A DNA stretch of 64,000 nt from a virus (lineage: Duplodnaviria; Caudoviricetes): IMG/VR virus record IMGVR_UViG_3300025867_000005; one strand, given 5' to 3'. The notes under the pieces were generated by a model. It did not search any database. It had not been told where the DNA came from and saw nothing but the letters and a program-made list of their open reading frames with translations. Each line of letters opens with the position of its first letter. Position 1 is the stretch's first letter. This document shows, piece after piece, positions 25,269 through 43,633 of the stretch. A program made the translations under genes and the position numbers.

Positions 25269-25327
25269 AATCCCTATTTACAGAAAACCGCAAATCTGTT
25301 ATTTTATAAAAAAGGAAGCAAAAGGAA

Positions 25328-25657
25328 ATGATTGAAAACGAACTGAAGATTCTTAGACACAGCTTGGGAACGGATTGGGAAGGGGATCTTACTTGGCATA
25401 GGAATTATTTTGATCCCGGCGGAGAAGACATCAAAATTTGTGAAAGCCTTCTTGCTAGAGGATTGATGACAAAGGCAAAGACGGCCTTTATCGGGAATAA
25501 TTTGTATTATGTGACAGAAGCTGGAAAACAGTTTGTCAGGGAAAATATCATCCAGAAACCTAAGTTGTCTCGAAGCAAGGAACGGTATCGGAAATATCTT
25601 CAGGAAGACAGTTGTTTGGATTTTGGAGAATGGTTAAAGAAAGGTCGGTATAAGTGA
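25328..25657 (+). CDS. hypothetical protein
   Basis: RBS. Confidence 0.65.
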   Translation: MIENELKILRHSLGTDWEGDLTWHRNYFDPGGEDIKICESLLARGLMTKAKTAFIGNNLYYVTEAGKQFVRENIIQKPKLSRSKERYRKYLQEDSCLDFGEWLKKGRYK

Positions 25658-26715
25658 AATTTTTCATCTACGGTGGAACGATTGACGGAGAACACAGCAG
25701 GACTTCGGGTATTGTCAACAAAATCAAAACCTGTTTGTTGGATTACGGAGGCGGAATGTCGATGAACGGACATCCATTGGATACACCGTCATTGGTACAG
25801 GATTTATACAATTCAAACCGGTGGATAGACACTATGATTTGGATGCCGGATATCAGGAACGAAGAACCAAAACATTATCCTATCAAGAAGGTAGGGGATG
25901 TTTTGATTTGTTCCAAAGTTATGCGGGAAGGCTATACCCGATTGGATGCCGTCAGCCGTATTTTTAAAATGCAGGGTAATGCCGTCATCTGCATTTACAA
26001 AGACGAAACTCCTTTCCGTTTCGAGTTGATAGATGCTCTCGGGAATATTTGGTGTTCGACCACCGAAATCAGCGTTCTGTGCAAGGCTATCAATGACCTA
26101 TACAAACAGACGCGGGAAAGTGTACGACTCGGCTCAGTGCACGTCAATAGGCTTGACGGTTATCCTAGAGACAGAGACAGCATTCGGTATCTGATTCGTG
26201 CGAATCAAGCTTTGAAAGACAAAATCATGGAAAGCTGCGGAAACCGGTTTTTCGGAAATATAAGCACAAGATGTCAGAACCTATTCCCGAGTTGTTCCGG
26301 TACCGGCGTTGTTTTTGTCAGTCCGAGGAATTGTGACAAAACCGGCTTGACGGCTGAAGATATGGTTCCCTGTTATCTTGAAGACAGTTTGGTTTGTTAC
26401 GGTGGACAGATGAAACCGAGTGTCGATACTCCGATACAGATTGCCCTGTATAACCAATTGCCTGGAATCAAATACATGATTCATGGACATGCATTTCTAA
26501 AACCAGGCAGTTATTCTTTTGATGTTTCAGAGACAAATGAATACCGGTTTTGCGGGGACTACAGGGAAAAAGATTTGATTTTGAAAGTAATACCAGAAGG
26601 ATCGGAATACGGTGTCGTAAATTTAAAAAATCACGGATTCCTTATCTATTCTTCGAATGAAGACCAACTGAAAGAAATCTTAACTTCTTCAGACTGGGAA
26701 ATGAAAAGATGGTAG
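25654..26715 (+). CDS. class II aldolase/adducin-domain protein
   Basis: FGNISTR, KPSVDTPIQ, IHGH, LKNHG motifs. Confidence 0.75.
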   Translation: MKFFIYGGTIDGEHSRTSGIVNKIKTCLLDYGGGMSMNGHPLDTPSLVQDLYNSNRWIDTMIWMPDIRNEEPKHYPIKKVGDVLICSKVMREGYTRLDAVSRIFKMQGNAVICIYKDETPFRFELIDALGNIWCSTTEISVLCKAINDLYKQTRESVRLGSVHVNRLDGYPRDRDSIRYLIRANQALKDKIMESCGNRFFGNISTRCQNLFPSCSGTGVVFVSPRNCDKTGLTAEDMVPCYLEDSLVCYGGQMKPSVDTPIQIALYNQLPGIKYMIHGHAFLKPGSYSFDVSETNEYRFCGDYREKDLILKVIPEGSEYGVVNLKNHGFLIYSSNEDQLKEILTSSDWEMKRW

Positions 26716-26799: not shown

Positions 26800-27246
26800 A
26801 TGAATGAATCGAATATGGGATGGATATGTCCGAAGTGTGGAAGAGTAAACGCTCCTTGGGTAAGCAGTTGCCCTTGTTATTGCGAAAAGACCGATCAACA
26901 AGGAAACCGATATCCTATTTATCCGAATACTACACCTTATCCCTTTCCAAGTTTCCCTTATCCTACTTATCCAATCGTAACTTGTGAAGGGAATACTACG
27001 GTGTCAGAAACCAAGGATACCGTAAGGTTCGAAACTTCTACAGAAGGTATCATCGCCGGAATTATTGAAAGTCCTATTCCGTTGGAAGTATTTCCGAACA
27101 AAATGGGAATAAACGTTTGTTCCGTAGAAAAACTTTCTTGGGAACGGCAGAGCGACGGGCAGCTTAGAAGCTTGTCTATACGTTTTATCCCGGATACTGA
27201 AGATCAAAAGGAATCTTTAAATGATCCGGAAAGAACAGTAAAATGA
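26800..27246 (+). CDS. zinc-ribbon protein
   Basis: GWICPKCGRVNAPWVSSCPC. Confidence 0.65.
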   Translation: MNESNMGWICPKCGRVNAPWVSSCPCYCEKTDQQGNRYPIYPNTTPYPFPSFPYPTYPIVTCEGNTTVSETKDTVRFETSTEGIIAGIIESPIPLEVFPNKMGINVCSVEKLSWERQSDGQLRSLSIRFIPDTEDQKESLNDPERTVK

Positions 27247-27493
27247 ATTTATTTTGATATTTGTGAAATGTTTGCGCGAAGAATCTATAATGTGTTAGGA
27301 GACGGAATGAAAGAAACGACAAATAGGATAAACTTGATTACAGGGCGAAAACCCTATAGTCGTTTTTTGTCTAATGGAGGCAAACGAAACTAACCGTTAA
27401 GAGAAAGTTTTAGATTTTTAATGGAAGACACTTGACGGGAGTTAAAGAAACTGTTAAAGTGTCTTTTGTTTTCTACGAGAAGAAGTTGTTTTT

Positions 27494-27583
27494 GGAGAGT
27501 TGGCAGAATTGGTAAATGCGCGGGCCTGGAAAGCCTGCGGGAATCAAAAACCCACGAGGGTTCGAACCCCTCACTCTCCTCCA
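27494..27583 (+). tRNA. tRNA-Ser(GGA)
   Basis: cloverleaf, long V arm, CCA. Confidence 0.92.
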
Positions 27584-27604
27584 GTTTTTGAAATTTGAGA
27601 TTAA

Positions 27605-27697
27605 GGAGGGTTGGGGGAATTGGTTGAACCCGGATGTCTCGAAAACATCTGAATCGGCTAACACCCGGTTCTGTCAGTTCGAATCTGACACCCTCTT
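27605..27697 (+). tRNA. tRNA-Ser(CGA), no encoded CCA
   Basis: GATGT-CT-CGA-AA-ACATC; TTCGAAT. Confidence 0.88.
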
Positions 27698-27767
27698 GCT
27701 GGATAAGTTGAAGTACCTTTACGTGGTTTCTGGTATAGGGTCGCTTGCGATTCTCGAAATCTTCAAC
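27698..27767 (+). ncRNA. HDV-like (theta) self-cleaving ribozyme
   Basis: P1 GCTGGA/TCTGGT, P2 GTTGAAG/CTTCAAC, P3 ACC/GGT, L3 TTTACGT, P4 hairpin, J4/2 CGAAAT; G1 directly after tRNA discriminator. Confidence 0.75.
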
Positions 27768-27788
27768 AGTGTTCTTTAAAATTAGAAT

Positions 27789-27876
27789 CGGAGTTTAGCT
27801 CAGTTGGTAGAGCACCGCACTTTTAATGCGGGGGTAGCGTAAGCAATCACGGGTTCGAACCCCGTAACTCCGGCCA
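27789..27876 (+). tRNA. tRNA-Lys(TTT), long variable arm
   Basis: cloverleaf, CCA. Confidence 0.9.
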
Positions 27877-27892
27877 TTAAAGGGAAACAAAA

Positions 27893-27924
27893 GTTGCGTC
27901 CCCTGCGGGCGCATGAATTGAAAC
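27893..27924 (+). CRISPR. solitary type I-C-like CRISPR repeat unit 1
   Basis: GTTGCGTCCCCTGCGGGCGCATGAATTGAAAC, 32 nt, hairpin plus ATTGAAAC end. Confidence 0.75.
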
Positions 27925-28034
27925 CGACGCAGACTAAGAATCTGTGGCTGCCGAAAGGCAGCGGTTAATTTTGACAATTGAATAAGTTCTTGAATTCACA
28001 CAGGTTCCCTTAAATGGATTCTTGTGTGAAATTT

Positions 28035-28109
28035 GCGGGTGTATCTCAAAGGCTAGAGACTCAGTTTACCAAACTGATTATGAGAGTTCAATTCTCTTCT
28101 CCCGCTCCA
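28035..28109 (+). tRNA. tRNA-Gly(ACC)
   Basis: TCAGT-TT-ACC-AA-ACTGA; U73; CCA. Confidence 0.85.
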
Positions 28110-28284
28110 GATGGGTCCAATCGCCCCATGATTGGTAGCCAGTTCACATGACTGGTTTGCAGCGATATCAGATGTATGGATTTCAGTAGGAGCCTCAGTG
28201 TGACCGCAATGAAATCCAGGCATTGAAGTATTGGAATCTGTTTTAGAAAAAATCATGGCAGTAACCTCTGTGTAAAAGGTAAAT

Positions 28285-28383
28285 AGTAGAATAGGCCAAA
28301 TTGGTAGGGCAGTTGACTGTTACTCAACCCAAGACAATCTTAACCGATTGTGTGTGCAGGTTCGAATCCTGCTTCTACTGCCA
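28285..28383 (+). tRNA. tRNA-Asn(GTT), very long variable arm
   Basis: cloverleaf, CCA. Confidence 0.88.
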
Positions 28384-28392
28384 TTTTAAGAA

Positions 28393-28469
28393 CGGCGCGT
28401 GGGTCAACTTGGTAGACCGCTTGATTCGGGTTCAAGAATTTGCTGGTTCAAATCCAGTCGCGCCGACCA
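28393..28469 (+). tRNA. tRNA-Pro(CGG)
   Basis: cloverleaf, CCA. Confidence 0.92.
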
Positions 28470-28872
28470 TGTTTGAACGGGTTTGAAGAAAATGAAAAAA
28501 ATCTTCAGTATCCCTATTGACAACATGCCGTGGATTTAGTAAGATGTGCGGCGTTGAAAGGACAAGTAGGGAAACCAAAAATCCTGACAACAAATGTTCT
28601 TTGAGAGATGAAATGATGGTTCTGAATAGGTCAGAAGGAAGCGATGCTATGACGGTGGCAACCCAATGGCTAAAACGCGGCCAGATACGGTTCGATTCCG
28701 TGATTCAGAAAAATCAGAAAAATTTTTCGAAGACCACTTGACAGACGGCGGCGGTTTTGCTAAAGTCTGCGGTGTTGAAGAGAAAAAGGCAAAAAGCGGT
28801 TTGACGCCGCGCCCTGCGGAAAAGTTCAGAAATGAACTGGGGTAAAAATTGACAACTGAATACGATTTGAAA

Positions 28873-29250
28873 AAGAGTCTCTGAAGACCGGCCTGAATGA
28901 AAAGCTCAGGAAATGGGAACAAATCCCGCCCGGAAAAAAGAGACTTATCGCCATGCCGCCTTAAAACGGTATGGACTGGTTGATGAATCCAAGATTCCGT
29001 TCCCTTAAAGGAATGTTGAGTCAAGTGAAGTCAATCAAGAATTTCTGAAAACAGGCGGTGTCTGCCTGACCCTATTTAATAGTAGGGTGAAAGGACTCGG
29101 GCGTTAGTTCTGTGTTCAATCCGTAGCGCTTCCTTGAGAAGTGTATAACGTGTTGAAAGGTGTTAATCTTAGAAATCAGATTCACAGGGTCTGATGGAGA
29201 TGTCGGTTGCCAGACTTGTGTGGCAATTAAAAAGCACCGCTGAACGCCAA
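28873..29250 (+). ncRNA. structured RNA candidate
   Basis: ORF-free, consecutive hairpins (AGTCTCT/AGAGACT, CCATGCCG/CGGTATGG, CAGGC/GCCTG, TTGCCA/TGGCAA). Confidence 0.45.
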
Positions 29251-29255
29251 ATCTT

Positions 29256-29344
29256 GAGGGTATGGAGTAATTGGTTAACTCGCCAGGTTTTCATCCTGGA
29301 AACGCACTGCGCTTGTGCGGGTTCGAATCCCGCTACCCTTGCCA
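29256..29344 (+). tRNA. tRNA-Glu(TTC), long variable region
   Basis: cloverleaf, CCA. Confidence 0.9.
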
Positions 29345-29581
29345 TCTTTCGATGCGAATATCGGACAGACAATTTTGAAAATCTTAAGAAGGTAGATTCA
29401 TGGTTCGACGGAATTGTGAATCCTGACCTAACAGGGATAGATTCTACGTGGTGTATGGTGCACACTGGCCCCCTCAAACGGGCCGGGGGACAACGTTCAA
29501 GTCGTTGACGGAAGAACAAGTTTGTGTCTGCAAAGACGCATAAGTGAAATCCCCTACAACTTTACCCCTGAACAGGGGAAT

Positions 29582-29657
29582 GCATCGGTAGTTCAATTGG
29601 TAGAACGATGGACTTCCACTCCGTAGGTTGCCGGTTCAAGCCCGGTCCGATGCTCCA
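29582..29657 (+). tRNA. tRNA-Gly(TCC)
   Basis: cloverleaf, CCA. Confidence 0.92.
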
Positions 29658-29658
29658 T

Positions 29659-29687
29659 GTTGCACAAGTTTGTGTATGAATTGAAAT
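29659..29687 (+). CRISPR. solitary I-C-like repeat unit 2 (shortened)
   Basis: GTTGCACAAGTTTGTGTATGAATTGAAAT. Confidence 0.6.
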
Positions 29688-29731
29688 AAATAGCGGTATA
29701 TCAGTTAGTAGATAGTTTCCATGATTTTTAT

Positions 29732-29807
29732 AGGAGTGTCGTATAGATGGTTTTTACGGATGTCTGATAAACATCTTAAGAGGGTTCGACTCCCTCCACT
29801 CCTACCA
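29732..29807 (+). tRNA. tRNA-Ile(GAT)
   Basis: cloverleaf, CCA. Confidence 0.92.
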
Positions 29808-29918
29808 TTTGTCGGAATTAGAACTGTCGTGAAATTCACATTGATCAGTGAAAAGTAATTCTGGAGCCGCATAGACAGTTATATACCCCCTCGGTCAAAG
29901 GGTACGACAATTAATTTT

Positions 29919-29994
29919 GGGGCTGTCGTCTAAGAGGAAGGACATAGGGCTGAAAATCCTACGGTGATGGTTTCGAGTACCTCTGGCCCCACCA
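29919..29994 (+). tRNA. tRNA-Phe(GAA)
   Basis: cloverleaf, CCA. Confidence 0.88.
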
Positions 29995-30092
29995 ATTTAA
30001 AGCTGAATAGCAACGTATCCAAGCCGTTGTGCCCGTCCCTTCTTTTGGAAGGTAATGATATGCGGTTGAAATCCGAAGCTTGGCCGATTTAC

Positions 30093-30212
30093 GGGGATGT
30101 GGCGCAATGGCAAACACGGGTTGTATCCTAACAGCTTAGGTCGTGCGGAACAGCCTGTTGTCTAAATCCAAATTACGACAACTTGTATGTTCGAATCCTG
30201 CCTTCCCCATCA
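30093..30212 (+). ncRNA. tRNA-like RNA with extra arms
   Basis: acceptor GGGGATG/CTTCCCC, D-loop-like TGGCAA, TTCGAAT; two extra helices. Confidence 0.5.
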
Positions 30213-30219
30213 TTTTTTA

Positions 30220-30383
30220 CGGGACGAAGTAAAACGGAAAGGTCTCGGATCAATTGATCCCGAACACATGTCAGACTGGTAAGCGCAACCGAATTGACTT
30301 CGGGTTTATTTTCCGATAAAAGACTATAACACCAAGGAATGGTGCCTTGGAAATATTTGGTTCGACTCCAAAAGTCCCGACCA
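30220..30383 (+). ncRNA. tRNA-like RNA with giant D-domain (type A)
   Basis: CGGGAC/GTCCCG-A-CCA, T arm TTTGG-TTCGACT-CCAAA, ~100-nt D insertion. Confidence 0.65.
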
Positions 30384-30495
30384 ACATCTGTTTCTAATTA
30401 ATTCAGAGAAAACATTGAACAGCCGTGGGCTCTGTTTAATCTCAATCGGTGAGTTTACCTAATGCGGTAAAAGTCCGTGGCCTCCTCCGTTTTAT

Positions 30496-30584
30496 TGATA
30501 GGTGCGGAGAATGGTATTCCAGTTGGCTGTTAACCAACCGTCCCGCAAGGGCAATCGCTGGTTCGAATCCAGTCCTATCAGCCA
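30496..30584 (+). tRNA. tRNA-Asn(GTT), long variable arm
   Basis: cloverleaf, CCA. Confidence 0.88.
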
Positions 30585-30592
30585 TTTTTTAT

Positions 30593-30725
30593 GCAGTAGG
30601 AGTAAAACGTAAAGTCGGTTCTGGAAACCTCTGGGTTCGTTCGATGTCGTGCCCAGTCAAGGAACTGATATAACACCTCCAAACGAAGGAGGAGATATCT
30701 GGTTAGACTCCAGTCTACTGTACCA
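30593..30725 (+). ncRNA. tRNA-like RNA with giant D-domain (type A)
   Basis: GCAGTAG/CTACTGT-A-CCA; shares AGTAAAACG and TATAACACC with 30220-30383. Confidence 0.65.
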
Positions 30726-30972
30726 TTGCTGCGACTTGTAGCATAAGAATTTCTGGCGTAGCTTAAGCCTTACCCAAACAAAACAGTCCCTATGTCAGGG
30801 ATATGATGTTTGTAAAACAAGGGATAGACCTTGGGTTTAAATTGAAAGGGTGTGGCCACATCTTTTTAAGGAAAACCCAAATAAGGGAACGTGTTTGAAA
30901 TCCCCTTGGGGAAAAAACAACTGCGATGATGCAGTAAGATGATAAGGAAGAAGAGATAGACGGTTTGCATTT

Positions 30973-31047
30973 GACATACTGGTGTAATCTGGTTAGCACG
31001 GCCCTGATAGAGGGGGAGGTCCGGGTTCAAATCCCTAGTGTCGCTAG
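30973..31047 (+). pseudogene. degenerate tRNA
   Basis: D arm TGGTGTAATCTGGTTAGCAC and GGGTTCAAATCCC, but poor anticodon arm and acceptor stem. Confidence 0.5.
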
Positions 31048-31398
31048 ATGCGGGCTGGAACAAGATTGAAATCCTCTGAAGGTACTTATCCGCCAGACCA
31101 ATTTTACCTGCTTCTCAGAAGTTATAGGGTTCTGTTTTGAAACATAAGAATATCAATTTGTTTAGCGGATATCCCTTATGAAAAGGAAGTCTTATGATTC
31201 TGAGGATATTCATTCCCATTTCGTTTATGGAGAGTGCTGGTGAAAGACGCATAGGAAAGGACAATTGGAAGGGATTCACGACTTGCGATATGCCTATGCG
31301 CCTTAAAGTGAATATGCGTTGTCATTCAGTCGGATGTCAATGTGAACTATTTACGGCTCATATCCTTTGGCGGATGCCTTAATCCGTGGAAGGTAAAT

Positions 31399-31472
31399 GG
31401 GGATGTATCTCAATTGGACAGAGTGTGTGGCTTCTAACCACAAGGTTGCGGGTTCGACTCCCGCTTTCCCCA
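31399..31472 (+). tRNA. tRNA-Arg(TCT), no encoded CCA
   Basis: TGTGG-CT-TCT-AA-CCACA. Confidence 0.9.
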
Positions 31473-31473
31473 C

Positions 31474-31543
31474 GGGTGATAAGTTGAAGTACCTTTACGT
31501 GGTTTCACCTATAGAGTCACTTGCGATTCTCGAAATCTTCAAC
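31474..31543 (+). ncRNA. HDV-like (theta) self-cleaving ribozyme
   Basis: P1 GGGTGA/TCACCT (covaries with copy at 27698), identical P2/P3/L3/J4-2. Confidence 0.8.
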
Positions 31544-32190
31544 AAAATGATATCTTGGATAATTTTTAAGAATTTCATAGCTTTCCCTTCTTTAAAGTGT
31601 TGGAAAGTTGAAACATCAATAATACAAAGTTCTATATTTCGTTCGTGACAAGCTTGGCATTTCCTGTTGTCATTGTTTTGAATTTTGGAAAGCTTATCTT
31701 CACCGTAGATAGGTTCGTAATGAAAGATACCATTTAGTTCGAAAGCAAGTTTCAAAGAAGGAATGTAGATATCTAGTTCTGAATTGATAGCGTCCTTCCT
31801 ATTGAAGTGGAATTCAAGATTTGGGTAAAGGATCGGCAACTTCGTTTCCAACCACCTTTCAAGCTTAGATATTTTTGTTCCTTTTGTTTTATGCATGTTA
31901 TTATAGGTTGCTGAACAAGATTGACTGCAAAAATGGTGTTTGGATTTCTTGATGCGCGAAATTTGTATCTTAAATTTTTTACTACATTGTTCGCAGTTGA
32001 TAAAAATTGGAGGATGAACAGATTGACCGAAACAGATAAGAGAACAATATTCAGAAGTTTCACCTTTTTTTGTATTTTGAATCCTGTGTTTTTCTTTGTA
32101 GAAAGTTTTACCGCAATGTTTACATTGTAACGGTAGTAGTTGACGTGATTTAGCTGCTTGGAATTCTTCTTCGGTAAAAAGTGGTATCAT
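31495..32190 (-). CDS. zinc-finger + Vsr-like homing endonuclease
   Basis: CxxC..FCSxSC repeats; ELDIYIPSLKLAFELNGIFHY. Confidence 0.8.
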   Translation of the reverse strand: MIPLFTEEEFQAAKSRQLLPLQCKHCGKTFYKEKHRIQNTKKGETSEYCSLICFGQSVHPPIFINCEQCSKKFKIQISRIKKSKHHFCSQSCSATYNNMHKTKGTKISKLERWLETKLPILYPNLEFHFNRKDAINSELDIYIPSLKLAFELNGIFHYEPIYGEDKLSKIQNNDNRKCQACHERNIELCIIDVSTFQHFKEGKAMKFLKIIQDIILLKISRIASDSIGETT

Positions 32191-32233
32191 AATCTATTCC
32201 TCCTACATATGGAATGAATATCGAAGAACAATT

Positions 32234-32256
32234 TTCGACTCTCGCCTTCCCCACCA
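32234..32256 (+). repeat. displaced duplicate of tRNA-Arg(TCT) 3' end
   Basis: TTCGACTCTCGCCTTCCCCACCA vs TTCGACTCCCGCTTTCCCCA at 31453-31472. Confidence 0.8.
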
Positions 32257-32536
32257 ATAACCGAGAAGGGTCAGCAAACTTCAAAATAATGAAGGCTGGA
32301 AAAAATAGACGGCATAGGACATGGTTCGATTCCCTTAGCCTTGGTAGGATGTCCGGATTGCTGGAACTTATGTGAAATCACCTTCTCGATGCTTTCAAAC
32401 ATCCCCTTTGAGTCAGAAAAATCAGCGGGATGTTTTCAAATAAGCCTTGTGACTTCTACAAATTTATCTGACAAGTTTCTGTTTGTCACAGGGAAGATCG
32501 GAAACTTCCGACACGGGGATGAAAAGCCCCGAATAT

Positions 32537-32613
32537 GCTTGTGTAGCGCAACTGGATAACGCATCTGGCTCTTACCCAGAGGATTGCGGGATCGTTCCCC
32601 GCCACAAGTACCA
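32537..32613 (+). tRNA. tRNA-Lys(CTT)
   Basis: cloverleaf, CCA. Confidence 0.9.
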
Positions 32614-32625
32614 TTTTTTTTAAGA

Positions 32626-32715
32626 GGGGGTTGTTCTTTACGGAGGTCTGTAAAACCTTTGCCGTTATTATGTAAAGCGGTTCGGCAGATAGTTCGACTC
32701 TATCAGCCCCCACCA
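32626..32715 (+). tRNA. tRNA-Tyr(GTA), D-arm-less
   Basis: acceptor, anticodon, long V and T arms, CCA; D arm replaced by 10-nt linker. Confidence 0.75.
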
Positions 32716-32829
32716 ATTTTGCCGAGTTCCTACCTGAAACCTGCCGCTTCAACAACCGGTTACAGAAAACCTTGATTTTCGCACGTCAAGGATTTTGTGA
32801 AGGGAAAGCGTTAGGGAAAACGGTGAATC

Positions 32830-32906
32830 GCCCCTGTAACTCAATTGGCTAGAGGCTCTGACTCGTAATCAGAAAGTTGTCAGATCATACCTGACCGGGG
32901 GCTCCA
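32830..32906 (+). tRNA. tRNA-Thr(CGT)
   Basis: cloverleaf, CCA. Confidence 0.9.
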
Positions 32907-32922
32907 TTTTTAGGATTAACAT

Positions 32923-32993
32923 TGCGAGAGGTTTAAATCACGCCGGACACATGTTCCGGAGTTGTCGGTATCCAATCCGTTTTCCCGCAAACA
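32923..32993 (+). pseudogene. degenerate tRNA(CAT)-like
   Basis: CCGGA-CA-CAT-GT-TCCGG arm, TGCG/CGCA ends, no D arm. Confidence 0.35.
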
Positions 32994-33003
32994 CTTTAGA
33001 ATG

Positions 33004-33078
33004 GGGGGTATAGCTCAATGGCTAGAGCTCCACGCTTACATCGTGGCTATAGGAGTTCGATTCTCTTTACCCCCACCA
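33004..33078 (+). tRNA. tRNA-Val(TAC)
   Basis: cloverleaf, CCA. Confidence 0.92.
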
Positions 33079-33396
33079 TGTTTAAGAATGCTTTAGAATG
33101 GGAGAAAGGTCGGGTAGAAAAGTCCCAAGTCTCACAGCCAATTTCGGTTAGATTCCTATTTGAATGTGCTTTTGAAAAAGTGATTCAGGATATGGATCTT
33201 TCCGACCAGTTTGACAGACAAGAGATGTTGAAAAACACGCCTATGGAATAGACCTACTACGAGAACGGCTATTATGTAGGAAGGAAGAAACCCCGTGAAG
33301 CAACATGGGGATAGTGCCTGGTGGCTTAACCACCATCCCCGTAAAGGGTATAACGTAGATAAGCGGCACCACTTGTTTTTGTCTGTCAGATTTTAT

Positions 33397-33519
33397 GGGG
33401 TCCCTGTTTTCCAAACACTGGTACTGATTAAACACTAATTATCAGGAAACGGCTTGCGGATGGTAACGCAGGTGTTCTACGGAACTAGAGAATGGTGAAA
33501 ATCCGTTCGGTCCCCACCA
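33397..33519 (+). ncRNA. CCA-ended tRNA-like RNA with enlarged D region
   Basis: GGGGTCC/GGTCCCC-A-CCA, T-like arm GAATGG/CCGTTC. Confidence 0.55.
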
Positions 33520-33540
33520 CTTTTAAGGTTTATTTTTCAT

Positions 33541-33615
33541 GCCTGCGTCGTCTACTGGCTAGGACATTAGATTCTCAATCTAATAAAGACGGATCGATAC
33601 CGTTCGCAGGTGCCA
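33541..33615 (+). tRNA. tRNA-Glu(CTC)
   Basis: cloverleaf, CCA. Confidence 0.9.
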
Positions 33616-33646
33616 GAGGGGGAAGATTTTGGTTTTGAAGACGAAT

Positions 33647-33736
33647 GAGAGTTTGGGTGAAATGAATTAGCCAACGGTCTGCAAAACCGTAAAACACAGA
33701 AATGTGATGAGGGTTTAAGTCCCTCAACTCTCTCCA
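33647..33736 (+). tRNA. tRNA-Cys(GCA), long variable arm
   Basis: cloverleaf, U73, CCA. Confidence 0.85.
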
Positions 33737-33746
33737 TTTTTTAGAT

Positions 33747-33821
33747 AGGGATATGATGTAACTAGTAGCATGAAAATCTCCAAAATTTTCTGTCCAGACG
33801 CGAATTCTGGTATCCCTGCCA
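33747..33821 (+). tRNA. tRNA-Trp(CCA)
   Basis: AAAAT-CT-CCA-AA-ATTTT; CCA end. Confidence 0.85.
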
Positions 33822-34113
33822 CACAAAGGAAACTACGACGCGCTACAAACTGAAGCCGAGAAGCCTAAGATGCGCTAAGTACGATCAAGGGGTGAGACGA
33901 TTCTTGATTTGCGCAAGAGATAGAAAAGTCAACGTACCCTAGTTTCCCTGATTTACTAAAAAAAGATTAGCGGAAAACTATCAAGAACCACTTGACACAG
34001 AAGCAGAGGTTTGATACAGTGTTTGTGTTTGAGAAATTCTAGGTGCTGTAAGCAAGTCCTTATTAGGACTGTGAAGCCCGAATAGACCTTTGAAAACTGA
34101 ATGTGATTTAAAT

Positions 34114-34193
34114 GGTGGAATGGCCGGAAACTCTTTTTCGGGGCTCCGATTTAATGGGGCTTAATGTTGGGGAAGATCCAATATCCACTACCA
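34114..34193 (+). ncRNA. degenerate CCA-ended tRNA-like RNA
   Basis: GGTGGA/TCCACT-A-CCA with three internal hairpins. Confidence 0.45.
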
Positions 34194-34230
34194 ATTTATG
34201 TCGATTTATGTTAATTTATGTCGATTTATT
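34194..34230 (+). repeat. 10-nt tandem repeat (~3.7 copies)
   Basis: ATTTATGTCG ATTTATGTTA ATTTATGTCG ATTTATT. Confidence 0.8.
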
Positions 34231-34309
34231 GCGGTAGGGATTAAGGTAAGGTTTACCTAATGAGGCTCATAACCTTGTAACCAGAGATCGTTCCTCTGCG
34301 CCGCATCCA
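34230..34309 (+). tRNA. tRNA-Met(CAT)
   Basis: TGAGG-CT-CAT-AA-CCTTG; CCA. Confidence 0.75.
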
Positions 34310-34316
34310 ATTTTAA

Positions 34317-34349
34317 GTTGTGCTATTCGAATAGCACATGAATTGAAAC
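34317..34349 (+). CRISPR. solitary I-C-like repeat unit 3
   Basis: GTTGTGCTATTCGAATAGCACATGAATTGAAAC. Confidence 0.7.
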
Positions 34350-34362
34350 ATCACGGGACAAT

Positions 34363-35366
34363 GGGAATATGGAATAACGGCTAGTTCACCTCACTTAACC
34401 ATTTCAATAGTTAAATATTCTGCCATTTTGTTTGATAATTATAATCCGTGTAGAGGAGACGTATGATACCACTTTACACCGAAGAAGAATTTAACAAGGC
34501 TAAATCAAGAGATTTACTTCCCAACCAATGTAAAAATTGCGGGAAGATTTTCTTTAGAGAAAAACACAATATAATGTTTTACATTAATAATGGAGGTGGA
34601 GATTTTTGTTCAATTTCTTGTTCTTTTAAATTCAATAACCCACTGATTGAAGTTGTTTGTCATACATGTGGAAAATCATTTAAGAAGAAAAAACTTGATG
34701 CAGATAAAGAAGAACGGCATTTTTGTAGTAGAAGTTGTGCTAATAAATATTCTTCAAATATCAATAAAGAACAAAAGACTTTAAACCAAAAGAAATGGGC
34801 AAATTCAGAAGAAGGAAAAAATTTTTTAACTAAAACAAGCAAATTGGCATGTATTAAAAGTATAGAAATTAGAAAACTTAAATGGAAAATGAATAAATGT
34901 CCGGTTTGTGGTAAAGAGTTTAGGGTAATGTTTAAACATAAGAAATACTGTTCGGCAACTTGTTATAATAAAATATCTGGTGGTATAAAAAGGGGGTCTA
35001 GTAGAGGTAAGCATGGTTGGTATAAGGGATACTGGTGTGATTCTTCTTGGGAACTTGCTTGGGTGATTTACAACCTTGATCATGGGATTAAGTTTGAAAG
35101 GAATCATCAAGGTTTTGAATACGAATTTGAAGGAAAGAAACATAAATACTATCCAGATTTCATTTTAGAAGATGGAACTTACGTTGAAATTAAATCTGTT
35201 ATGGATGAAAAGAACAAAGCTAAAATTGCTTCGTTCCCAACTTCAATTAAAGTTTTACAGCATAAAGAGATTAAAATATTCATAGACCATGCGATTAAAA
35301 TCTATGGTAAAAATTTCATCTCATTATATGAGGAAGGTCTGGGTTCGAATCCCGGTATTCTCGCCA
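34363..35366 (+). tRNA. tRNA (probably Asp) split at the anticodon by an endonuclease gene; halves 34363-34395 and 35327-35366
   Basis: GGGAATA/TATTCTC acceptor, CCTCA/TGAGG anticodon stem, G73, CCA. Confidence 0.75.
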
Positions 35367-35380
35367 ACGCCTTGACATAG
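34463..35380 (+). CDS. zinc-finger + TnsA-like PD-(D/E)xK homing endonuclease
   Basis: CxxC..FCS repeats; CDSSWE, YYPDF..YVEIK. Confidence 0.82.
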   Translation: MIPLYTEEEFNKAKSRDLLPNQCKNCGKIFFREKHNIMFYINNGGGDFCSISCSFKFNNPLIEVVCHTCGKSFKKKKLDADKEERHFCSRSCANKYSSNINKEQKTLNQKKWANSEEGKNFLTKTSKLACIKSIEIRKLKWKMNKCPVCGKEFRVMFKHKKYCSATCYNKISGGIKRGSSRGKHGWYKGYWCDSSWELAWVIYNLDHGIKFERNHQGFEYEFEGKKHKYYPDFILEDGTYVEIKSVMDEKNKAKIASFPTSIKVLQHKEIKIFIDHAIKIYGKNFISLYEEGLGSNPGILANALT

Positions 35381-35445
35381 CTTAAGCGTAAAGCCCCGAC
35401 ATTGTAGTCGGGAGATGAAGCCTAACGAACTTCTGACTCGGCCAA
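35369..35445 (+). pseudogene. degenerate tRNA-Thr(TGT)-like
   Basis: TAGCTTAAGCGTAAAGC D arm, CCCGAC/GTCGGG stem with TGT, poor T arm. Confidence 0.4.
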
Positions 35446-35588
35446 TTTGTCCCATGTCCTGAACAAAGGGATAACAGGACTTAATTACGTTTCTGCTGGC
35501 AGAGCCGATAAAGATCCACCCCGGAAGTGCAGAAAGTAAGGGACAAACTTTTTGATATCAGATTCTATTAATGTAACAAGGGTTTTAT

Positions 35589-36077
35589 ATGTCTAGGAAA
35601 AGAACATGGACTGATGAAGATTTTACTAAGGCGGCTTCTGTTTCTACTTCTGTTCGAGATCTTCTAAAAAAGATAGGATTACATCCAACTGGAGCAAACT
35701 ATAAAACGGTTTGGGCAACTGTCAGGCGTTTAGGAATAAATACCAAACATTGGGTCGGGAGTGGCCATCTTAAAGGTAAAACACATAATTGGTCTAAGTG
35801 TCTACCTTTCGAAGAGATTTTGATAAAAGATTCGCATTATAGAGGTAGTACTTCTCGGTTAAAATCTAGACTAATAAAAAACGGAAAGCTTTTAAATAAG
35901 TGTTATGAATGTGGACAAGAACCTTTATGGAAAGGAAAGATTTTAGTTCACGTTCTTGACCATATTAATGGCGACAATACAGATAATAGAATCGAAAACC
36001 TTAGATTGTTGTGTCCGAATTGTAATAGTCAAACAGAAACTTTTGCTGGGAAGAATAGAAAGTTTGTTCATTGTTAA
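35589..36077 (+). CDS. HNH endonuclease
   Basis: CYEC..LDHINGDNTDNRIENLRLLCPNC. Confidence 0.9.
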   Translation: MSRKRTWTDEDFTKAASVSTSVRDLLKKIGLHPTGANYKTVWATVRRLGINTKHWVGSGHLKGKTHNWSKCLPFEEILIKDSHYRGSTSRLKSRLIKNGKLLNKCYECGQEPLWKGKILVHVLDHINGDNTDNRIENLRLLCPNCNSQTETFAGKNRKFVHC

Positions 36078-36079
36078 TA

Positions 36080-36169
36080 CGTGCCGTATCCCAACTGGCT
36101 GGAGGAGCGGGACTCAAAATCCCGTGGACGGAAGTCCCACTGTGGGTTCGAATCCCACCGGCACGACCA
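36080..36169 (+). tRNA. tRNA-Leu(CAA)
   Basis: cloverleaf, CCA. Confidence 0.9.
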
Positions 36170-36176
36170 TTTTAAA

Positions 36177-36213
36177 CAGGGTGTAGCTCAATCTGGCTAG
36201 AGCGCGTGATTTT
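36177..36213 (+). pseudogene. 5' half of a tRNA (Pro-like)
   Basis: CAGGGTGTAGCTCAATCTGGCTAGAGCGCGTGATT, no 3' half. Confidence 0.55.
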
Positions 36214-36245
36214 TATCATTCCTAAATCTTAAGGGCAGTATTTAT

Positions 36246-36331
36246 CTGTGTGTAGTCCGTAATTTGGTAGCGGGTCGGCTTTGGGAGCCGGAGCGAAAGT
36301 CTTGTAGGTTCAAATCCTATCACACAGACCA
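36246..36331 (+). tRNA. tRNA-Pro(TGG)
   Basis: cloverleaf, extended V, CCA. Confidence 0.88.
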
Positions 36332-36400
36332 CTGTCGGCTATGGATAAGCTTCCTTCTATACTTTTATGGAAAAACCAGCTTTCCGCTTTCCGACACTTT

Positions 36401-36477
36401 CGAGGTATATTTCAATTGGTTAGAAGAACGGTCTCATAATCCGTTAGTTGAAGGTTCGACTCCTTCTACCTCGACCA
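36401..36477 (+). tRNA. tRNA-Met/Ile2(CAT)
   Basis: cloverleaf, CCA. Confidence 0.88.
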
Positions 36478-36543
36478 ATTTTCACTTCAACTTAGTAACG
36501 CCAAAAGAAGAAATGTACGGCTTCTTGAGAAGAAGTGAATTAT

Positions 36544-36620
36544 GCTCCTGTGGCGCAATTGGCAGTCGCGTCTGGCTAAGGACCAGATTGTTGGGGATTC
36601 GAATTCCTCCAGGAGCACCA
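36544..36620 (+). tRNA. tRNA-Leu(AAG), short variable arm
   Basis: TCTGG-CT-AAG-GA-CCAGA; CCA. Confidence 0.85.
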
Positions 36621-36745
36621 TTTTTATTACAGGTAGTGAGAAATAGGAATCTCCATAAACCAATGAATAATTTTTCAAGACCTGTTGACGGAAGTAATCC
36701 GTTGTGGTATTTTATCTTTATCGAAAGCAAGAAAGGGATAAAACC

Positions 36746-37147
36746 ATGACAGTTAAACAGCTAGTTAGTCGTTTCAAAAAGATCAAGAAACTTGATTTGT
36801 CGAAGATTGCTTTTGAACAGCACACAAAGAGTGAGCTCGATGTATGTTTCGTTATTGACGGAAGCATTAAACGTCTGAGGATTTTCTATGTTGGTGAATA
36901 TCAGTTTGATTGGTGGAAACCACAATTCGAAGAATTTGTGAAGACGGGTAAATTTGATTTTTCAACGTATCACGAAATCTATGGAAATGGGACTCACCCA
37001 TCAGATGTCGGTGTCGCGATTCGGGTTCCGATGATTCTTGAAAACGGTGTTTATGTTGAAGATTCGAAGAAAACGTTGGAATTGGTTGGTGAATATCGCA
37101 GAACGATTAACTATGAAGTCGGTATTCGTCGCATCGCAAAAAAGTAA
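36746..37147 (+). CDS. hypothetical protein
   Basis: promoter cassette plus RBS. Confidence 0.7.
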   Translation: MTVKQLVSRFKKIKKLDLSKIAFEQHTKSELDVCFVIDGSIKRLRIFYVGEYQFDWWKPQFEEFVKTGKFDFSTYHEIYGNGTHPSDVGVAIRVPMILENGVYVEDSKKTLELVGEYRRTINYEVGIRRIAKK

Positions 37148-37235
37148 AGAGAAACCTTGTGATAGCGGTTTCTGGAAACGTGGTCGTAGCCTAATTGGAT
37201 AGGCAACAGCTTGTTCTTTGAAAAGTTAATTTTAT

Positions 37236-37310
37236 GGGGGTATACTATAATGGCTATTACGCCACACCTGCACTGTGGCAATCTCGGTTCGATTCCGAGT
37301 ACCTCCACCA
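37236..37310 (+). tRNA. tRNA-Ala(TGC)
   Basis: G3:U70, CCA. Confidence 0.9.
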
Positions 37311-37338
37311 GTTTGGTTAACCCGTAAGGGTTTGTGAA

Positions 37339-37370
37339 GTTGCGCCATTTACGGGCGCATGAATTGAAAC
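37339..37370 (+). CRISPR. solitary I-C-like repeat unit 4
   Basis: GTTGCGCCATTTACGGGCGCATGAATTGAAAC, 32 nt. Confidence 0.75.
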
Positions 37371-37412
37371 ACGCGGCTCCATTCCTCTGTTACACTACGC
37401 GTATACACTAAT

Positions 37413-37488
37413 GTCCCTGTAGCTCAATTGGAAGAGCGTTACACTACGAATGTAAAGGTTGCAGTTTCGAATACTGTCAGGGATGCCA
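37413..37488 (+). tRNA. tRNA-Arg(ACG)
   Basis: cloverleaf, CCA. Confidence 0.9.
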
Positions 37489-37493
37489 AAAAG

Positions 37494-37582
37494 GGAAGAC
37501 GAATCAGTAAGGTTGCTGACACTGTTTGCTAAACAGATGGCTCCCTAAAAAGAGTGAGAATCGTGTTCTCCGTCTTCCGCCA
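37494..37582 (+). tRNA. tRNA-Ser(GCT)
   Basis: cloverleaf, G73, CCA. Confidence 0.85.
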
Positions 37583-37809
37583 TTTTCTGTGTGTTAGCGC
37601 GTCAAGTTGAGGGCGTGTCGCGGTTCAATTGTAAAAACTTGCGGTTTCCGGACTTTACTCCCGGACGAATGGAAGTTGCGTTCCAGACACACAGGATGTT
37701 TTAGAGGTTTGTTGGTCGAAAAACCATCCCCTGTGTTTATGTAAAGGCTGGGCATCTTTATTCCTTAAACCAGCGTGTCCCCTTGGGGAGCGCATAAAAG
37801 GAGAAAAGT

Positions 37810-38244
37810 ATGAACAATATGTTGCCGAATCTGTTTACAGACAGGGTGTTTAACGAGATGATGGAAGCTTTGGAAAGAAGCCCAAGCATTTATCATCAGG
37901 ATAGTTCGGGGTATCCCGTGGATATCGCCGAAAGAACTTCAGAAGAAGGAGTCGTCTTGTCATATGAGATTATCGTCGCCCTTGCCGGGATCAGGAAAGA
38001 AAATCTTGATGTCAGCATTGACGGTGATGAACTTACAATAATTGTCAGGAAGGCTTCTGAAACTGAAAGCAAGACAAGGAAAATCATTCAGAAGGGAATC
38101 AGCAGCCGTGCTATGGAATTGCGTTACAAGCTGAACGGAATAGACAAAGCAGGGATTAAGTCGTGCTTTAAAGACGGCTTGCTGAAAATCGAGCTTCCTC
38201 TTCAGGAAGAAGCGAAAGCTCAGAAAATCACAATCGAAGACTAA
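37810..38244 (+). CDS. small heat shock protein (Hsp20/alpha-crystallin)
   Basis: YPVDI, ALAGIRKENLDV, KGISSR, FKDGLLKIELP. Confidence 0.9.
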   Translation: MNNMLPNLFTDRVFNEMMEALERSPSIYHQDSSGYPVDIAERTSEEGVVLSYEIIVALAGIRKENLDVSIDGDELTIIVRKASETESKTRKIIQKGISSRAMELRYKLNGIDKAGIKSCFKDGLLKIELPLQEEAKAQKITIED

Positions 38245-38304
38245 AAACCCGGAATGAAGATGTGCCGTTAAGGTCTTTGCTTTTTAGACACAAGGGATGG
38301 TTTT

Positions 38305-38381
38305 GGCGGTGTGTCGCAATTGGCAGTCGAGGAACACTCAGAATGTTCTTGTTGTGGGTTCAAATCCCGCCACCGTCACCA
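38305..38381 (+). tRNA. tRNA-Leu(CAG), short variable arm
   Basis: cloverleaf, CCA. Confidence 0.88.
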
Positions 38382-38404
38382 CTTTTAAAACGGAAAGGAA
38401 AAAT

Positions 38405-38710
38405 ATGAAGAAACTAATTATTCTTTTGGTTCTGTTGTTAGGTCAGATGTCTGTTAGGGCTGATACGAACAGTACGGAAACCATTAACAATTACGGCATT
38501 ATCGCGACGAACCTGATAGATTTTTCGTATCTGTCTGTTACGAATGCATCTTTCAGTGGTGTTTATTATGATAGCCGAACGACTTTTACGAATGTGGAAT
38601 TCGTTGCCATAGATAATCGTTTCATGCTGAACCTGAATAGCAATCAGATGGAAATTGTCAAGGAAAGATTCCCTGGAAAAGTCTTTACGAATTCCATAAC
38701 CATCTATTGA
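38405..38710 (+). CDS. secreted hypothetical protein
   Basis: signal peptide MKKLIILLVLLLGQMSVRA. Confidence 0.65.
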   Translation: MKKLIILLVLLLGQMSVRADTNSTETINNYGIIATNLIDFSYLSVTNASFSGVYYDSRTTFTNVEFVAIDNRFMLNLNSNQMEIVKERFPGKVFTNSITIY

Positions 38711-38759
38711 ATGTGTGCCTCGACGGCTTCAAATCGTATTCAGAGAAATGATTTCAAAT

Positions 38760-38834
38760 GTTGGTATTAGCACAACGGTAGTGTGTCTGACTGTGAATCA
38801 GAAGAAGAGGGATCAGCACCCTCATGCCAACCCA
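38760..38834 (+). tRNA. tRNA-His(GTG)
   Basis: G-1:C73 8-bp acceptor, CCA. Confidence 0.88.
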
Positions 38835-38976
38835 ACAAATACGTCACAACACCTGTTAGACGTTAAAAAACAGAGTAAGCAAATAAACAGAAGACCTGTG
38901 CGCCTTAGGCTTAACGAATTCCGACGTTTTCTTCGTCGAAAATTCTGAACCATTCAAGAAATGAGGTTATAAATTC

Positions 38977-39573
38977 ATGGTTAAGTTCATTGATGATAAT
39001 GGAAAGGAATTCTTTTCCTGTTCTAGCGCAGAAGCCAGATTCGCGATTCAGTCGGTTAAAGAAAAGAGGGAAAAGATAGACCCTGCCGAAAGGGAATCGC
39101 AAAGAATAATTAGAGAAAGGGAATTCATTCTTTCCAAATATGCAGAAACCCCGGTAGAGAAAATTTCTTGTGAAAAGCCGTATATGGATGTAAACTTCTT
39201 TATTGACTGTAAGGTAGAGATCGAAAGTTTAGACAAGATAGTGACACAAATATTTATGCACCCATTTCAATATGCCAATCTTCTGAAGCGGGAAAGAGAT
39301 ATTTTAGAACTAGAGCGCCAAATAGATTTCACAAGAACAGGGATGGTGGCGAAACTTTGGAATTCGGAAATATATATTTCCCCAAAAATTCAAGAAGATG
39401 AACTTTACCTGGTTTCACTAGAGCCGGAAGAAGAATTCTTCGGAAAGAGATTCAAGATTGACAGGACAGAAGAAGTTGAAACCATTTCTTCGATTGAAGA
39501 CTATCTTGGAAAGGTAATCGAAGAATTAGAAGACAAGAGAAATGAAATCATGGCTTCTAAGTTAAATCGCTAA
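38977..39573 (+). CDS. hypothetical protein with major-capsid-like segment
   Basis: IFMHP..YA....RDILE.E.Q....TG..AKLW..EIYIS..EPE pattern. Confidence 0.55.
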   Translation: MVKFIDDNGKEFFSCSSAEARFAIQSVKEKREKIDPAERESQRIIREREFILSKYAETPVEKISCEKPYMDVNFFIDCKVEIESLDKIVTQIFMHPFQYANLLKRERDILELERQIDFTRTGMVAKLWNSEIYISPKIQEDELYLVSLEPEEEFFGKRFKIDRTEEVETISSIEDYLGKVIEELEDKRNEIMASKLNR

Positions 39574-43300: not shown

Positions 43301-43633
43301 AAGCCCCGAAATGCGGAAGAGAAGTCTGACGAGTCCGCCAGAAGAGTATACCATAAACAGGAGGTACTCTTTGATGATGATGTTTCAACAGCCAACCTTT
43401 CCCCCGCCACGCTCTACTACCTCCCCGGCACATCCGGTTGGGACGCTCCCGCCGAACCGCTCCTCACATACGAACTCGTAAACGGAGAAATGACGATCAC
43501 GGGCGTAGACTCCTTCTTCACAGGCAATTCTTTGCCTATCCCGGAAAATCTTGCAGGCTACCCCGTTACCTCCATCGGCGACTACGCATTTTCCGACTGT
43601 GCATCCCTCACCTCTGTCAACATCCCCAGCGGC
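40357..43633 (+). mobile_element. GC-rich foreign (host-like) DNA insert
   Basis: abrupt GC and codon-usage shift; left edge truncates a tRNA-like 5' half (40333-40356). Confidence 0.7.

Follow-up and report, generated by a model that had tools for sequence, protein, structure and literature searches.

The known homing endonuclease genes reside either in intergenic positions or within introns and inteins that splice themselves out. We describe a 760-bp cassette (positions 31474–32233) in the middle of the tRNA array of a giant phage, formed by a candidate self-cleaving ribozyme directly behind tRNA-Arg(TCT) and a putative homing endonuclease gene on the opposite strand. The window analysed is a stretch of 64,000 nucleotides, bases 164667–228666 of a 304-kb IMG/VR phage record rated complete (IMGVR_UViG_3300025867_000005). 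Taken singly, the components of the cassette are all of known kinds: a theta ribozyme, related to that of the hepatitis delta virus (HDV-like), a homing nuclease of the Vsr-like type, and a homing gene residing among clustered phage tRNAs. What appears to be undescribed so far is the combination of ribozyme and nuclease, the fixed duplication of the tRNA segment T54–N73, a zinc-finger/Vsr-like family near-exclusive to tRNA arrays, and a self-cleaving, not self-splicing, RNA that would keep the invaded gene working. A literature search yielded nothing on the nuclease family, the T54–N73 duplication, or the ribozyme partner.

On the RNA side, theta ribozymes lie behind CCA-less tRNAs, have the HDV helix order and a core signature, and are reported from phages enriched in CCA-adding-type and DRB0094-like ligase genes; the paper describing them mentions neither endonucleases nor duplicated tRNA ends (PMC10879173). 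On the protein side, the Vsr-like homing enzymes of the EDxHD family have I-Bth0305I as their prototype. These enzymes are phage-borne and modular, with N-terminal DNA binding by a NUMOD helix-turn-helix and a C-terminal nuclease, and have their genes sited in a group I intron or intein; in assays, I-Bth0305I mostly nicked, and could leave a 2-base 5' overhang (PMC3239194). As for the genomic setting, papers on tRNA arrays report linked homing genes of the HNH or GIY-YIG type (PMC8421152, PMC2330249). SegB of T4 and T6 is encoded by a free-standing gene in the phage tRNA array, and is presumed to cut the tRNA genes of relatives devoid of it (PMC2330249, PMC13096335). Finally, the non-LTR retrotransposon R2 resides site-specifically in 28S rRNA genes and combines zinc fingers, a restriction-like nuclease of the PD-(D/E)XK superfamily and, where it adjoins the host RNA, an HDV-like ribozyme (PMC3636483).

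The cassette protein is predicted to share the Vsr-like catalytic fold and the modular layout of the EDxHD enzymes; however, it has two FCS-type zinc fingers instead of NUMOD, its gene is free-standing, and the predicted target is tRNA genes. Unlike the cassette, SegB is a GIY-YIG enzyme encoded between genes, with neither a ribozyme nor a duplicated tRNA end. The common logic with intron and intein homing genes is that a selfish nuclease gene is joined to a self-processing element sparing the invaded gene, but the element is self-splicing there and self-cleaving here, and the nuclease gene of the cassette is antisense and outside the ribozyme. A self-cleaving partner would work here only by virtue of the site of insertion, the 3' end of an RNA gene. 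R2 is the nearest analogy. It has its own reverse transcriptase, uses an RNA route, and its ribozyme frees the element RNA, whereas the cassette has no reverse transcriptase and its ribozyme is predicted to free the host tRNA.

The tRNA-Arg(TCT) gene is followed by C and then by G, and CCA is not encoded. According to the table of 3' flanks, 28 of the 30 tRNA or tRNA-like genes in the window encode CCA, the exceptions being tRNA-Arg(TCT) and tRNA-Ser(CGA). All 30 are on the plus strand, as are nearly all window genes; the nuclease open reading frame (ORF) is among the few long minus-strand frames in this otherwise plus-strand region. This ORF ends inside the ribozyme, to which its final 15 codons and its stop codon are antisense, and an AGGAGG-type ribosome-binding site at about 32198–32204 serves it. 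It is the sole long ORF between the repeats, the other frames being short and situated inside the nuclease gene on either strand. Past the nuclease gene, a second copy of the tRNA 3' part is seen. The two copies (31453–31473 and 32234–32254) are identical at 19 of 21 positions, with a spacing of 781 nt, and the downstream one runs into CCA; 100 shuffles produced no such match. The left end of the cassette is the ribozyme G1, and the right end lies just before the displaced T54.

The CCA-less tRNA followed by a ribozyme, the minus-strand zinc-finger endonuclease gene overlapping the latter, and the second T-loop/acceptor copy with CCA were all part of the original prediction, and the flank table, the fold, the gene overlap and the repeat statistics confirm them. 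The same prediction held that the downstream copy pairs better with the 5' strand of the tRNA. This is half right: G7–C66 replaces G7.U66, but the T-stem pair 52–62 becomes G.U. The displaced tail is probably non-functional, and the tRNA 3' end is predicted to be set by ribozyme cleavage between 31473 and 31474. We consider it probable that the segment 31474–32233 is one copy of a widespread selfish homing-endonuclease cassette with a portable tRNA 3'-end maker.

The 70-nt element is assigned to the HDV-like, theta-type ribozymes on comparative grounds. Helices P1, P2, P3 and P4 were placed in the HDV order by hand and with a descriptor (Table 1). The core, that is, ACC, U, two P1.1 bases, ACGU, GGU and J4/2 starting with C (for instance CGAAU or CUAA), is as in the published theta ribozymes. 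The departures from the latter are the 18-nt P4 hairpin where the published L4 is short, extra junction bases, and a weak P1.1, the total length here being about 70 nt. The sequence itself is absent from the published theta sequences in the supplements compared, and an exact-word search of IMG/VR for the ribozyme core gave no matches. The descriptor scan of related loci yielded 18 unique relatives. Pairing of P1, P2 and P3 was demanded by the descriptor and hence is not independent evidence, but P1.1 and P4 were not demanded, and both covary among the 18 relatives (CU/AG, GC/GC, CC/GG and GU/AC in P1.1). The pair closing P1 is G.U in 14 of them and G–C in four. The 304-kb genome holds exactly two copies of the element, each following one of the two CCA-less tRNAs. 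The copies, 31474–31543 and 27698–27767, are identical apart from three compensated changes in P1 and two nucleotides in P4.

The 231-aa protein consists of two FCS-type zinc fingers (residues ~20–95) and a Vsr-like nuclease domain (~103–227). Both zinc fingers have the pattern CxxC...FCSxxC in an alignment of 32 homologues, whose C-terminal block contains the motifs ELDIYIP and AFELNGIFHYEP. Residues E111, D140, E151, H157, D174 and D192 are invariant in these 32 sequences and may include the catalytic Glu/Asp/His/Asp set of the EDxHD enzymes. Pfam yields weak zf-FCS matches only, a PDB profile search finds the MYM finger (E 0.0012) and nothing beyond zinc fingers, and the PHROGs matches are to homing/HNH endonuclease families. 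An AlphaFold2 model (pLDDT 86.5) was compared with known structures. A plain Foldseek search gave no match at E <= 0.001. It took re-alignment to bring out the Vsr-like fold, in which residues 103–227 matched the catalytic domain of I-Bth0305I (3r3p; Z 9.9, root-mean-square deviation 3.0, 97/97 residues), a DUF559-type endonuclease (3hrl; Z 9.7) and Vsr (1cw0; Z 9.4). We read the protein as a putative zinc-finger/Vsr-like homing endonuclease that would cleave DNA in or near tRNA genes.

Two further observations concern the nuclease gene and its zinc fingers. A 15-nt inverted repeat, 32162–32176/32219–32233 (87% complementary), brackets the ribosome-binding site and the start codon of the nuclease gene, and could sequester both in the mRNA. 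The plus-strand ORF 34463–35380 encodes 305 aa, of which the first 106 match the zinc-finger half of the nuclease from the cassette at 45% identity. Its C-terminus differs and resembles phage endonuclease I. This ORF is situated inside an apparently split tRNA, with the 5' part at about 34363–34395 and the 3' part plus CCA at about 35327–35366, the split being near the anticodon. The shared half fits a tRNA-gene-directed DNA-binding module that may be shuffled between nucleases.

The layout of tRNA, ribozyme and nuclease gene recurs. In 18 of 70 non-redundant loci, the nuclease gene and the tRNA next to it have a ribozyme placed exactly between them, compared to one of the 315 other tRNAs there (Fisher p = 1e-13). 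The lone case is L037:1062–1144 (minus strand), where a long-P4 theta-type ribozyme stands behind tRNA-Thr(CGT) and the nuclease gene is not adjacent. In L077, past the nuclease stop at 3175 (minus strand), a decayed ribozyme is situated between tRNA-Glu and the nuclease gene; its G1 and catalytic C are both now A.

The downstream duplicates were sought by comparing 130 nt past the nuclease start codon with the 3' part of the adjacent tRNA. As a control, the left side of one locus was paired with the right side of another (99th percentile score 12). A T54–N73 duplicate was found 14–64 nt past the nuclease ATG in 15 of 66 non-redundant loci, and the ribozyme is present in 14 of these 15. All but two duplicates start exactly at T54, and eight are identical at all 20 positions through N73. 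Where native tRNAs encode CCA, the displaced copy retains CCA and the native spacer. Other remnants have 13–14 identical positions of 20 or are interrupted by insertions. As the remnants range from identical to decayed, the displaced copy is under no visible constraint. The identical duplicates probably mark recent events or frequent renewal.

Could there be no element here, just an ordinary phage gene beside a tRNA, the downstream tRNA fragment being a pseudogene or a product of chance? Such fragments abound in the tRNA arrays of phages, an example being the one at ~36175–36245. But zero chance matches are expected, and the three-part layout recurs in independent loci with controls. We find this explanation hardly credible, and rejected it on these grounds and on the contexts of loci L133 and L131, described below.

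T-loop-to-3'-end direct repeats are a classic sign of integrase-mediated insertion into tRNA genes. Islands and prophages of this kind share with the cassette both the repeat and the tRNA rebuilt at the left junction. Accordingly, one may consider a small integrative element that depends for its movement on a recombinase acting in trans, with the crossover in the T-loop as in tRNA-targeting islands. However, the cassette encodes the nuclease alone, is 760 bp long and sits inside phage genomes, and the repeat fits the local tRNA at more than ten tRNA types, which a fixed attP cannot do. No Pfam recombinase or transposase domain and no PHROGs transposase match was found for the cassette. The integrase-type explanation was rejected because there is no recombinase and the repeat is re-made at more than ten tRNA types; we regard it as very improbable.

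The original prediction also proposed that the cassette could explain the spread of theta ribozymes, and suggested a survey of their co-occurrence with the endonuclease. Canonical minimal theta ribozymes were drawn from IMG/VR by a 14-nt core word, and 33 passed the descriptor. Nearly all of them are directly behind a tRNA, but none of the 33 has a member of the nuclease family within 1.5 kb. These are gut ribozymes, whereas the sample considered here is not from the gut. Thus the survey bears out the association in the loci of the nuclease family and not among canonical theta ribozymes: the partnership is real for this ribozyme group, and does not explain theta in general. A partial downstream duplicate of the tRNA end, 163 nt away, is seen at one (L189) of 34 unique canonical theta junctions. 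There (L189:8191–8480), tRNA-Met precedes a canonical 55-nt theta ribozyme and then an ORF of 45 codons, at whose end 15 nt of the tRNA 3' end are repeated. Judged by eye, this ORF may be a degenerate fragment of a nuclease gene.

Comparison of related phages provides evidence of mobility. In the related phage G001, tRNA-Arg(TCT)-CCA occupies the syntenic place and the cassette is absent; a cassette sits instead behind tRNA-Leu(CAA), a site empty in the window. With defined ends and an empty syntenic site, the early description of a discrete cassette without an integrase holds. In L133 (1400–3330), two complete tandem cassettes are situated behind adjacent tRNA-Leu(CAA) and tRNA-Pro(TGG). In each, the tRNA is followed by a ribozyme, a nuclease gene and a duplicate that retains CCA together with the native spacer (Leu) or flank (Pro), and at the equivalent place the window has plain tRNA-Leu-CCA and tRNA-Pro. 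Recombination between these two tandem cassettes accounts for the locus L003/L034, from which tRNA-Pro is missing, and this loss is a cost to the phage.

The second ribozyme copy of the window, behind tRNA-Ser(CGA), has neither a nuclease gene nor a duplicate. In L131, tRNA-Ser(CGA) is followed by a ribozyme with the same P1 as the copy at 27698 and then by a nuclease gene 70% identical to that of the window. Given this nuclease-bearing counterpart, the 27698 copy is best read as a cassette minus the nuclease gene, and the segment 27605–27767 is probably a nuclease-less derivative of the cassette lineage, as had been reasonably suggested. Only 21 nt separate this ribozyme copy from tRNA-Lys(TTT), and the spacer bears GTTCTTTAA (27698–27788 for the ribozyme and the spacer together). 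In several related phages, GTTCTTTAA is likewise seen upstream of tRNAs and at the left ends of cassettes.

A quick maximum-likelihood tree was constructed for 70 nuclease proteins. The ribozyme-bearing nucleases are clustered on this tree, although they do not form one clade: 11 changes are required, compared to 18.9 in shuffles (0/500 as low). In the clade of the window, cassettes stand behind Arg, Ser, Met, Leu and Pro tRNAs and have one ribozyme subtype, and other groups have subtypes of their own. Since the subtypes follow the clades across different tRNAs, the ribozyme and the nuclease gene are co-inherited and travel together between tRNA genes.

At that, the nuclease might serve the phage, acting in recombination or amplification of the tRNA array or in the exclusion of rivals, with the ribozyme as a regulated maturation device and the duplicate as a by-product. 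SegB of T4 and T6, in the tRNA cluster, benefits the phage and can amplify tRNA loci (PMC2330249, PMC13096335), and the nuclease family persists in chromosomal tRNA arrays of cyanobacteria. However, the distribution of the cassette is sporadic among close relatives, the ribozyme of L077 and the duplicate remnants have decayed, and the recombinant L003 destroyed a tRNA gene. Hence we deem domestication improbable, and retain a selfish homing cassette as the preferred reading.

The nuclease family is large and tied to tRNA genes. More than 4,461 homologues are present in the metagenomic protein set, and 209 in IMG/VR. In 75 of 76 fetched IMG/VR loci holding tRNAs, all tRNAs are opposite in strand to the nuclease gene. 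In most loci the tRNA 3' end is at −66 to +200 nt from the nuclease stop codon, and the tRNA beside the nuclease gene may be of nearly any isotype. Relatives are present in just 22 of 185,579 species genomes, mostly on small contigs of metagenome-assembled genomes, the rest being filamentous cyanobacteria (Microcoleus, Nostoc, Tolypothrix, Microseira). The cyanobacterial form (L266–L277) is shorter, with one zinc finger and the nuclease domain, and lies antisense in chromosomal tRNA arrays, most loci overlapping the 3' end of tRNA-His(GTG).

The selfish homing cassette would operate as follows. In a mixed infection, the endonuclease would cut or nick the cassette-free tRNA allele near the T-loop or the 3' end, and recombinational repair would copy the ribozyme and the nuclease gene from the filled allele. 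The latter would be immune because the cassette splits the intact site, so that the T-arm, the acceptor end, CCA and the trailer are no longer contiguous. The filled tRNA would lack its CCA and native trailer, and antisense RNA of about 700 nt would follow it instead. The ribozyme would then cut 5' of G31474 regardless of the upstream sequence, leaving tRNA-Arg ending in A73–C74 with a 2',3'-cyclic phosphate, and end-healing enzymes together with a CCA-adding enzyme, for which the phage has a candidate gene, would complete the tRNA. As no particular upstream sequence is needed, the ribozyme would be portable between tRNAs; an HDV-like ribozyme cuts whatever lies upstream, and so could restore the 3' end of any tRNA gene that the cassette lands behind.

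The manner of DNA cutting bears on one more explanation. The sequence is compatible both with insertion at 53/54 supplying a new 3' end and with insertion at 73/74 accompanied by a duplicate. In a transposon-like insertion, the nuclease would nick opposite strands about 20 nt apart, at 53/54 and at 73/74 or 74/75, the cassette would be joined in, gap filling would yield a 20–21-bp target-site duplication, and homing would spread the result. The direct repeats are exact and local, run from T54 to N73/C74, and occur at many tRNA types in a single nuclease clade; the cassette has two defined ends; and nicking of single strands predominates among the published homing enzymes of the Vsr-like type (PMC3239194). 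On the other hand, neither a transposase nor terminal inverted repeats pairing the two cassette ends were found, the 231-aa nuclease has no joining activity, a 20-nt stagger is without precedent among homing endonucleases, and frequent homing into naive alleles could equally maintain the repeat identity. On balance, such insertion seems to us unlikely. The broader idea that this is a new kind of one-gene mobile DNA, with staggered nicks at 53/54 and 73/74, a 20–21-bp target duplication and the ribozyme as a portable 3'-end maker, is attractive but doubtful; on this idea, the ribozyme would be a third harm-limiting partner of homing nucleases, after introns and inteins, and the element would be a source of at least some HDV-like ribozymes linked to tRNAs. 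In any case, the exact T54–N73 duplication raises a testable question about the manner of cutting.

Several observations weigh against the homing cassette. About three quarters of the family members have no ribozyme, and many ribozyme-less loci keep the tRNA CCA and a T-rich trailer, with only a T-loop-like stub past the nuclease start. P1.1 of the subtype found in the window has one clean pair only. Rfam 15 shows no ribozyme family match in 27000–39000, either at the gathering threshold or at E up to 10, and the nested folding energy of the element is no better than shuffled (z ~0); the latter is expected for a pseudoknot and carries no weight either way. A near-identical empty allele of this exact tRNA-Arg was not found in IMG/VR, and the empty allele anticipated at the outset is represented by the syntenic site of G001; in metagenome contigs, the search for it retrieved only the related tRNA-Arg(CCT)-CCA in a phage-like array and unrelated bacterial tRNAs. 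The relatives are all metagenomic contigs, and we infer the activities of both catalysts, the RNA and the protein. Plain homing propagates a duplicate, but does not account for an exact local duplicate at each new tRNA type. Finally, recognition of the T-arm only would mean that all tRNA genes are cut, and the specificity of the enzyme is therefore unexplained.

If the homing cassette is real, it would provide a rationale and a possible origin for a part of the tRNA-linked HDV-like ribozymes, and account for some of the churn in giant-phage tRNA arrays, where cassettes insert, also in tandem, and tRNA genes are deleted. For tRNA expression, it would also offer a natural and compact module for making 3' ends, and it would draw attention to a group of nucleases with a zinc-finger module that may recognise tRNA genes.

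Table 1. Features of the cassette, helices of the candidate ribozyme, and related loci of the same phage (window coordinates unless marked otherwise)
Feature	Position	Strand	Basis or remark
tRNA-Arg(TCT), positions 1–73	31399–31472, C74 = 31473	+	ARAGORN; Rfam 62.3 bits
21-nt direct repeat, left copy (T54–C74 of the tRNA)	31453–31473	+	working tRNA 3' part
Candidate HDV-like (theta-type) ribozyme, 70 nt	31474–31543	+	hand fold, descriptor scans, comparison
P1, 6 bp	31474–79 with 31505–10		closed by G1.U (G31474.U31510)
P2, 7 bp	31483–89 with 31537–43
P3, 3 bp, L3 a 7-nt loop	31491–93 with 31501–03
P4, 6-bp hairpin	31513–18 with 31525–30
Candidate catalytic C, first base of J4/2	31531
Putative homing endonuclease gene, 231 aa	31495–32190	-	ORF, profile, structure model
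Cassette right end, 5' untranslated region of the nuclease gene	32191–32233	-	in relatives of the clade, terminal motif conserved as far as the junction
Displaced native tRNA tail, T54–N73 and CCA	32234–32256	+	runs on into native downstream DNA
tRNA-Ser(CGA) without CCA and second ribozyme copy	27605–27697, 27698–27767	+	neither nuclease gene nor duplicate here
CCA-adding-family and DRB0094-like ligase genes	G000:C1:53854–54282 and 25276–26394		outside the window

The last row of the table lists two genes that the phage has in common with the theta-bearing phages. The PolyA_pol/CCA-adding family protein scores 64.8 bits, above the cut-off, and the DRB0094-like RNA ligase scores 80 bits, below the cut-off. 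A scan of the cassette for sigma-70 promoters and terminators gave nothing exceeding the shuffled background. The blastn search against isolated phages produced a match to tRNA-Lys only, and the contigs with an identical nuclease protein represent the same phage and show no variation.

A motif, CATGAATTGAAA, follows a small hairpin near tRNAs, either before or shortly after them, e.g. at about 27898–27925, 34330–34349 and 37339–37370. The instance upstream of tRNA-Arg is conserved in G001. The fragment at 36175–36245 is tRNA-like at its 5' part (acceptor and D-arm), and is situated between tRNA-Leu(CAA) and a weakly scoring tRNA-Pro(TGG). Finally, the 1095-aa ORF at 40517–43804 lies in a stretch with the GC content of 0.49–0.58, compared to about 0.41 elsewhere in the window.

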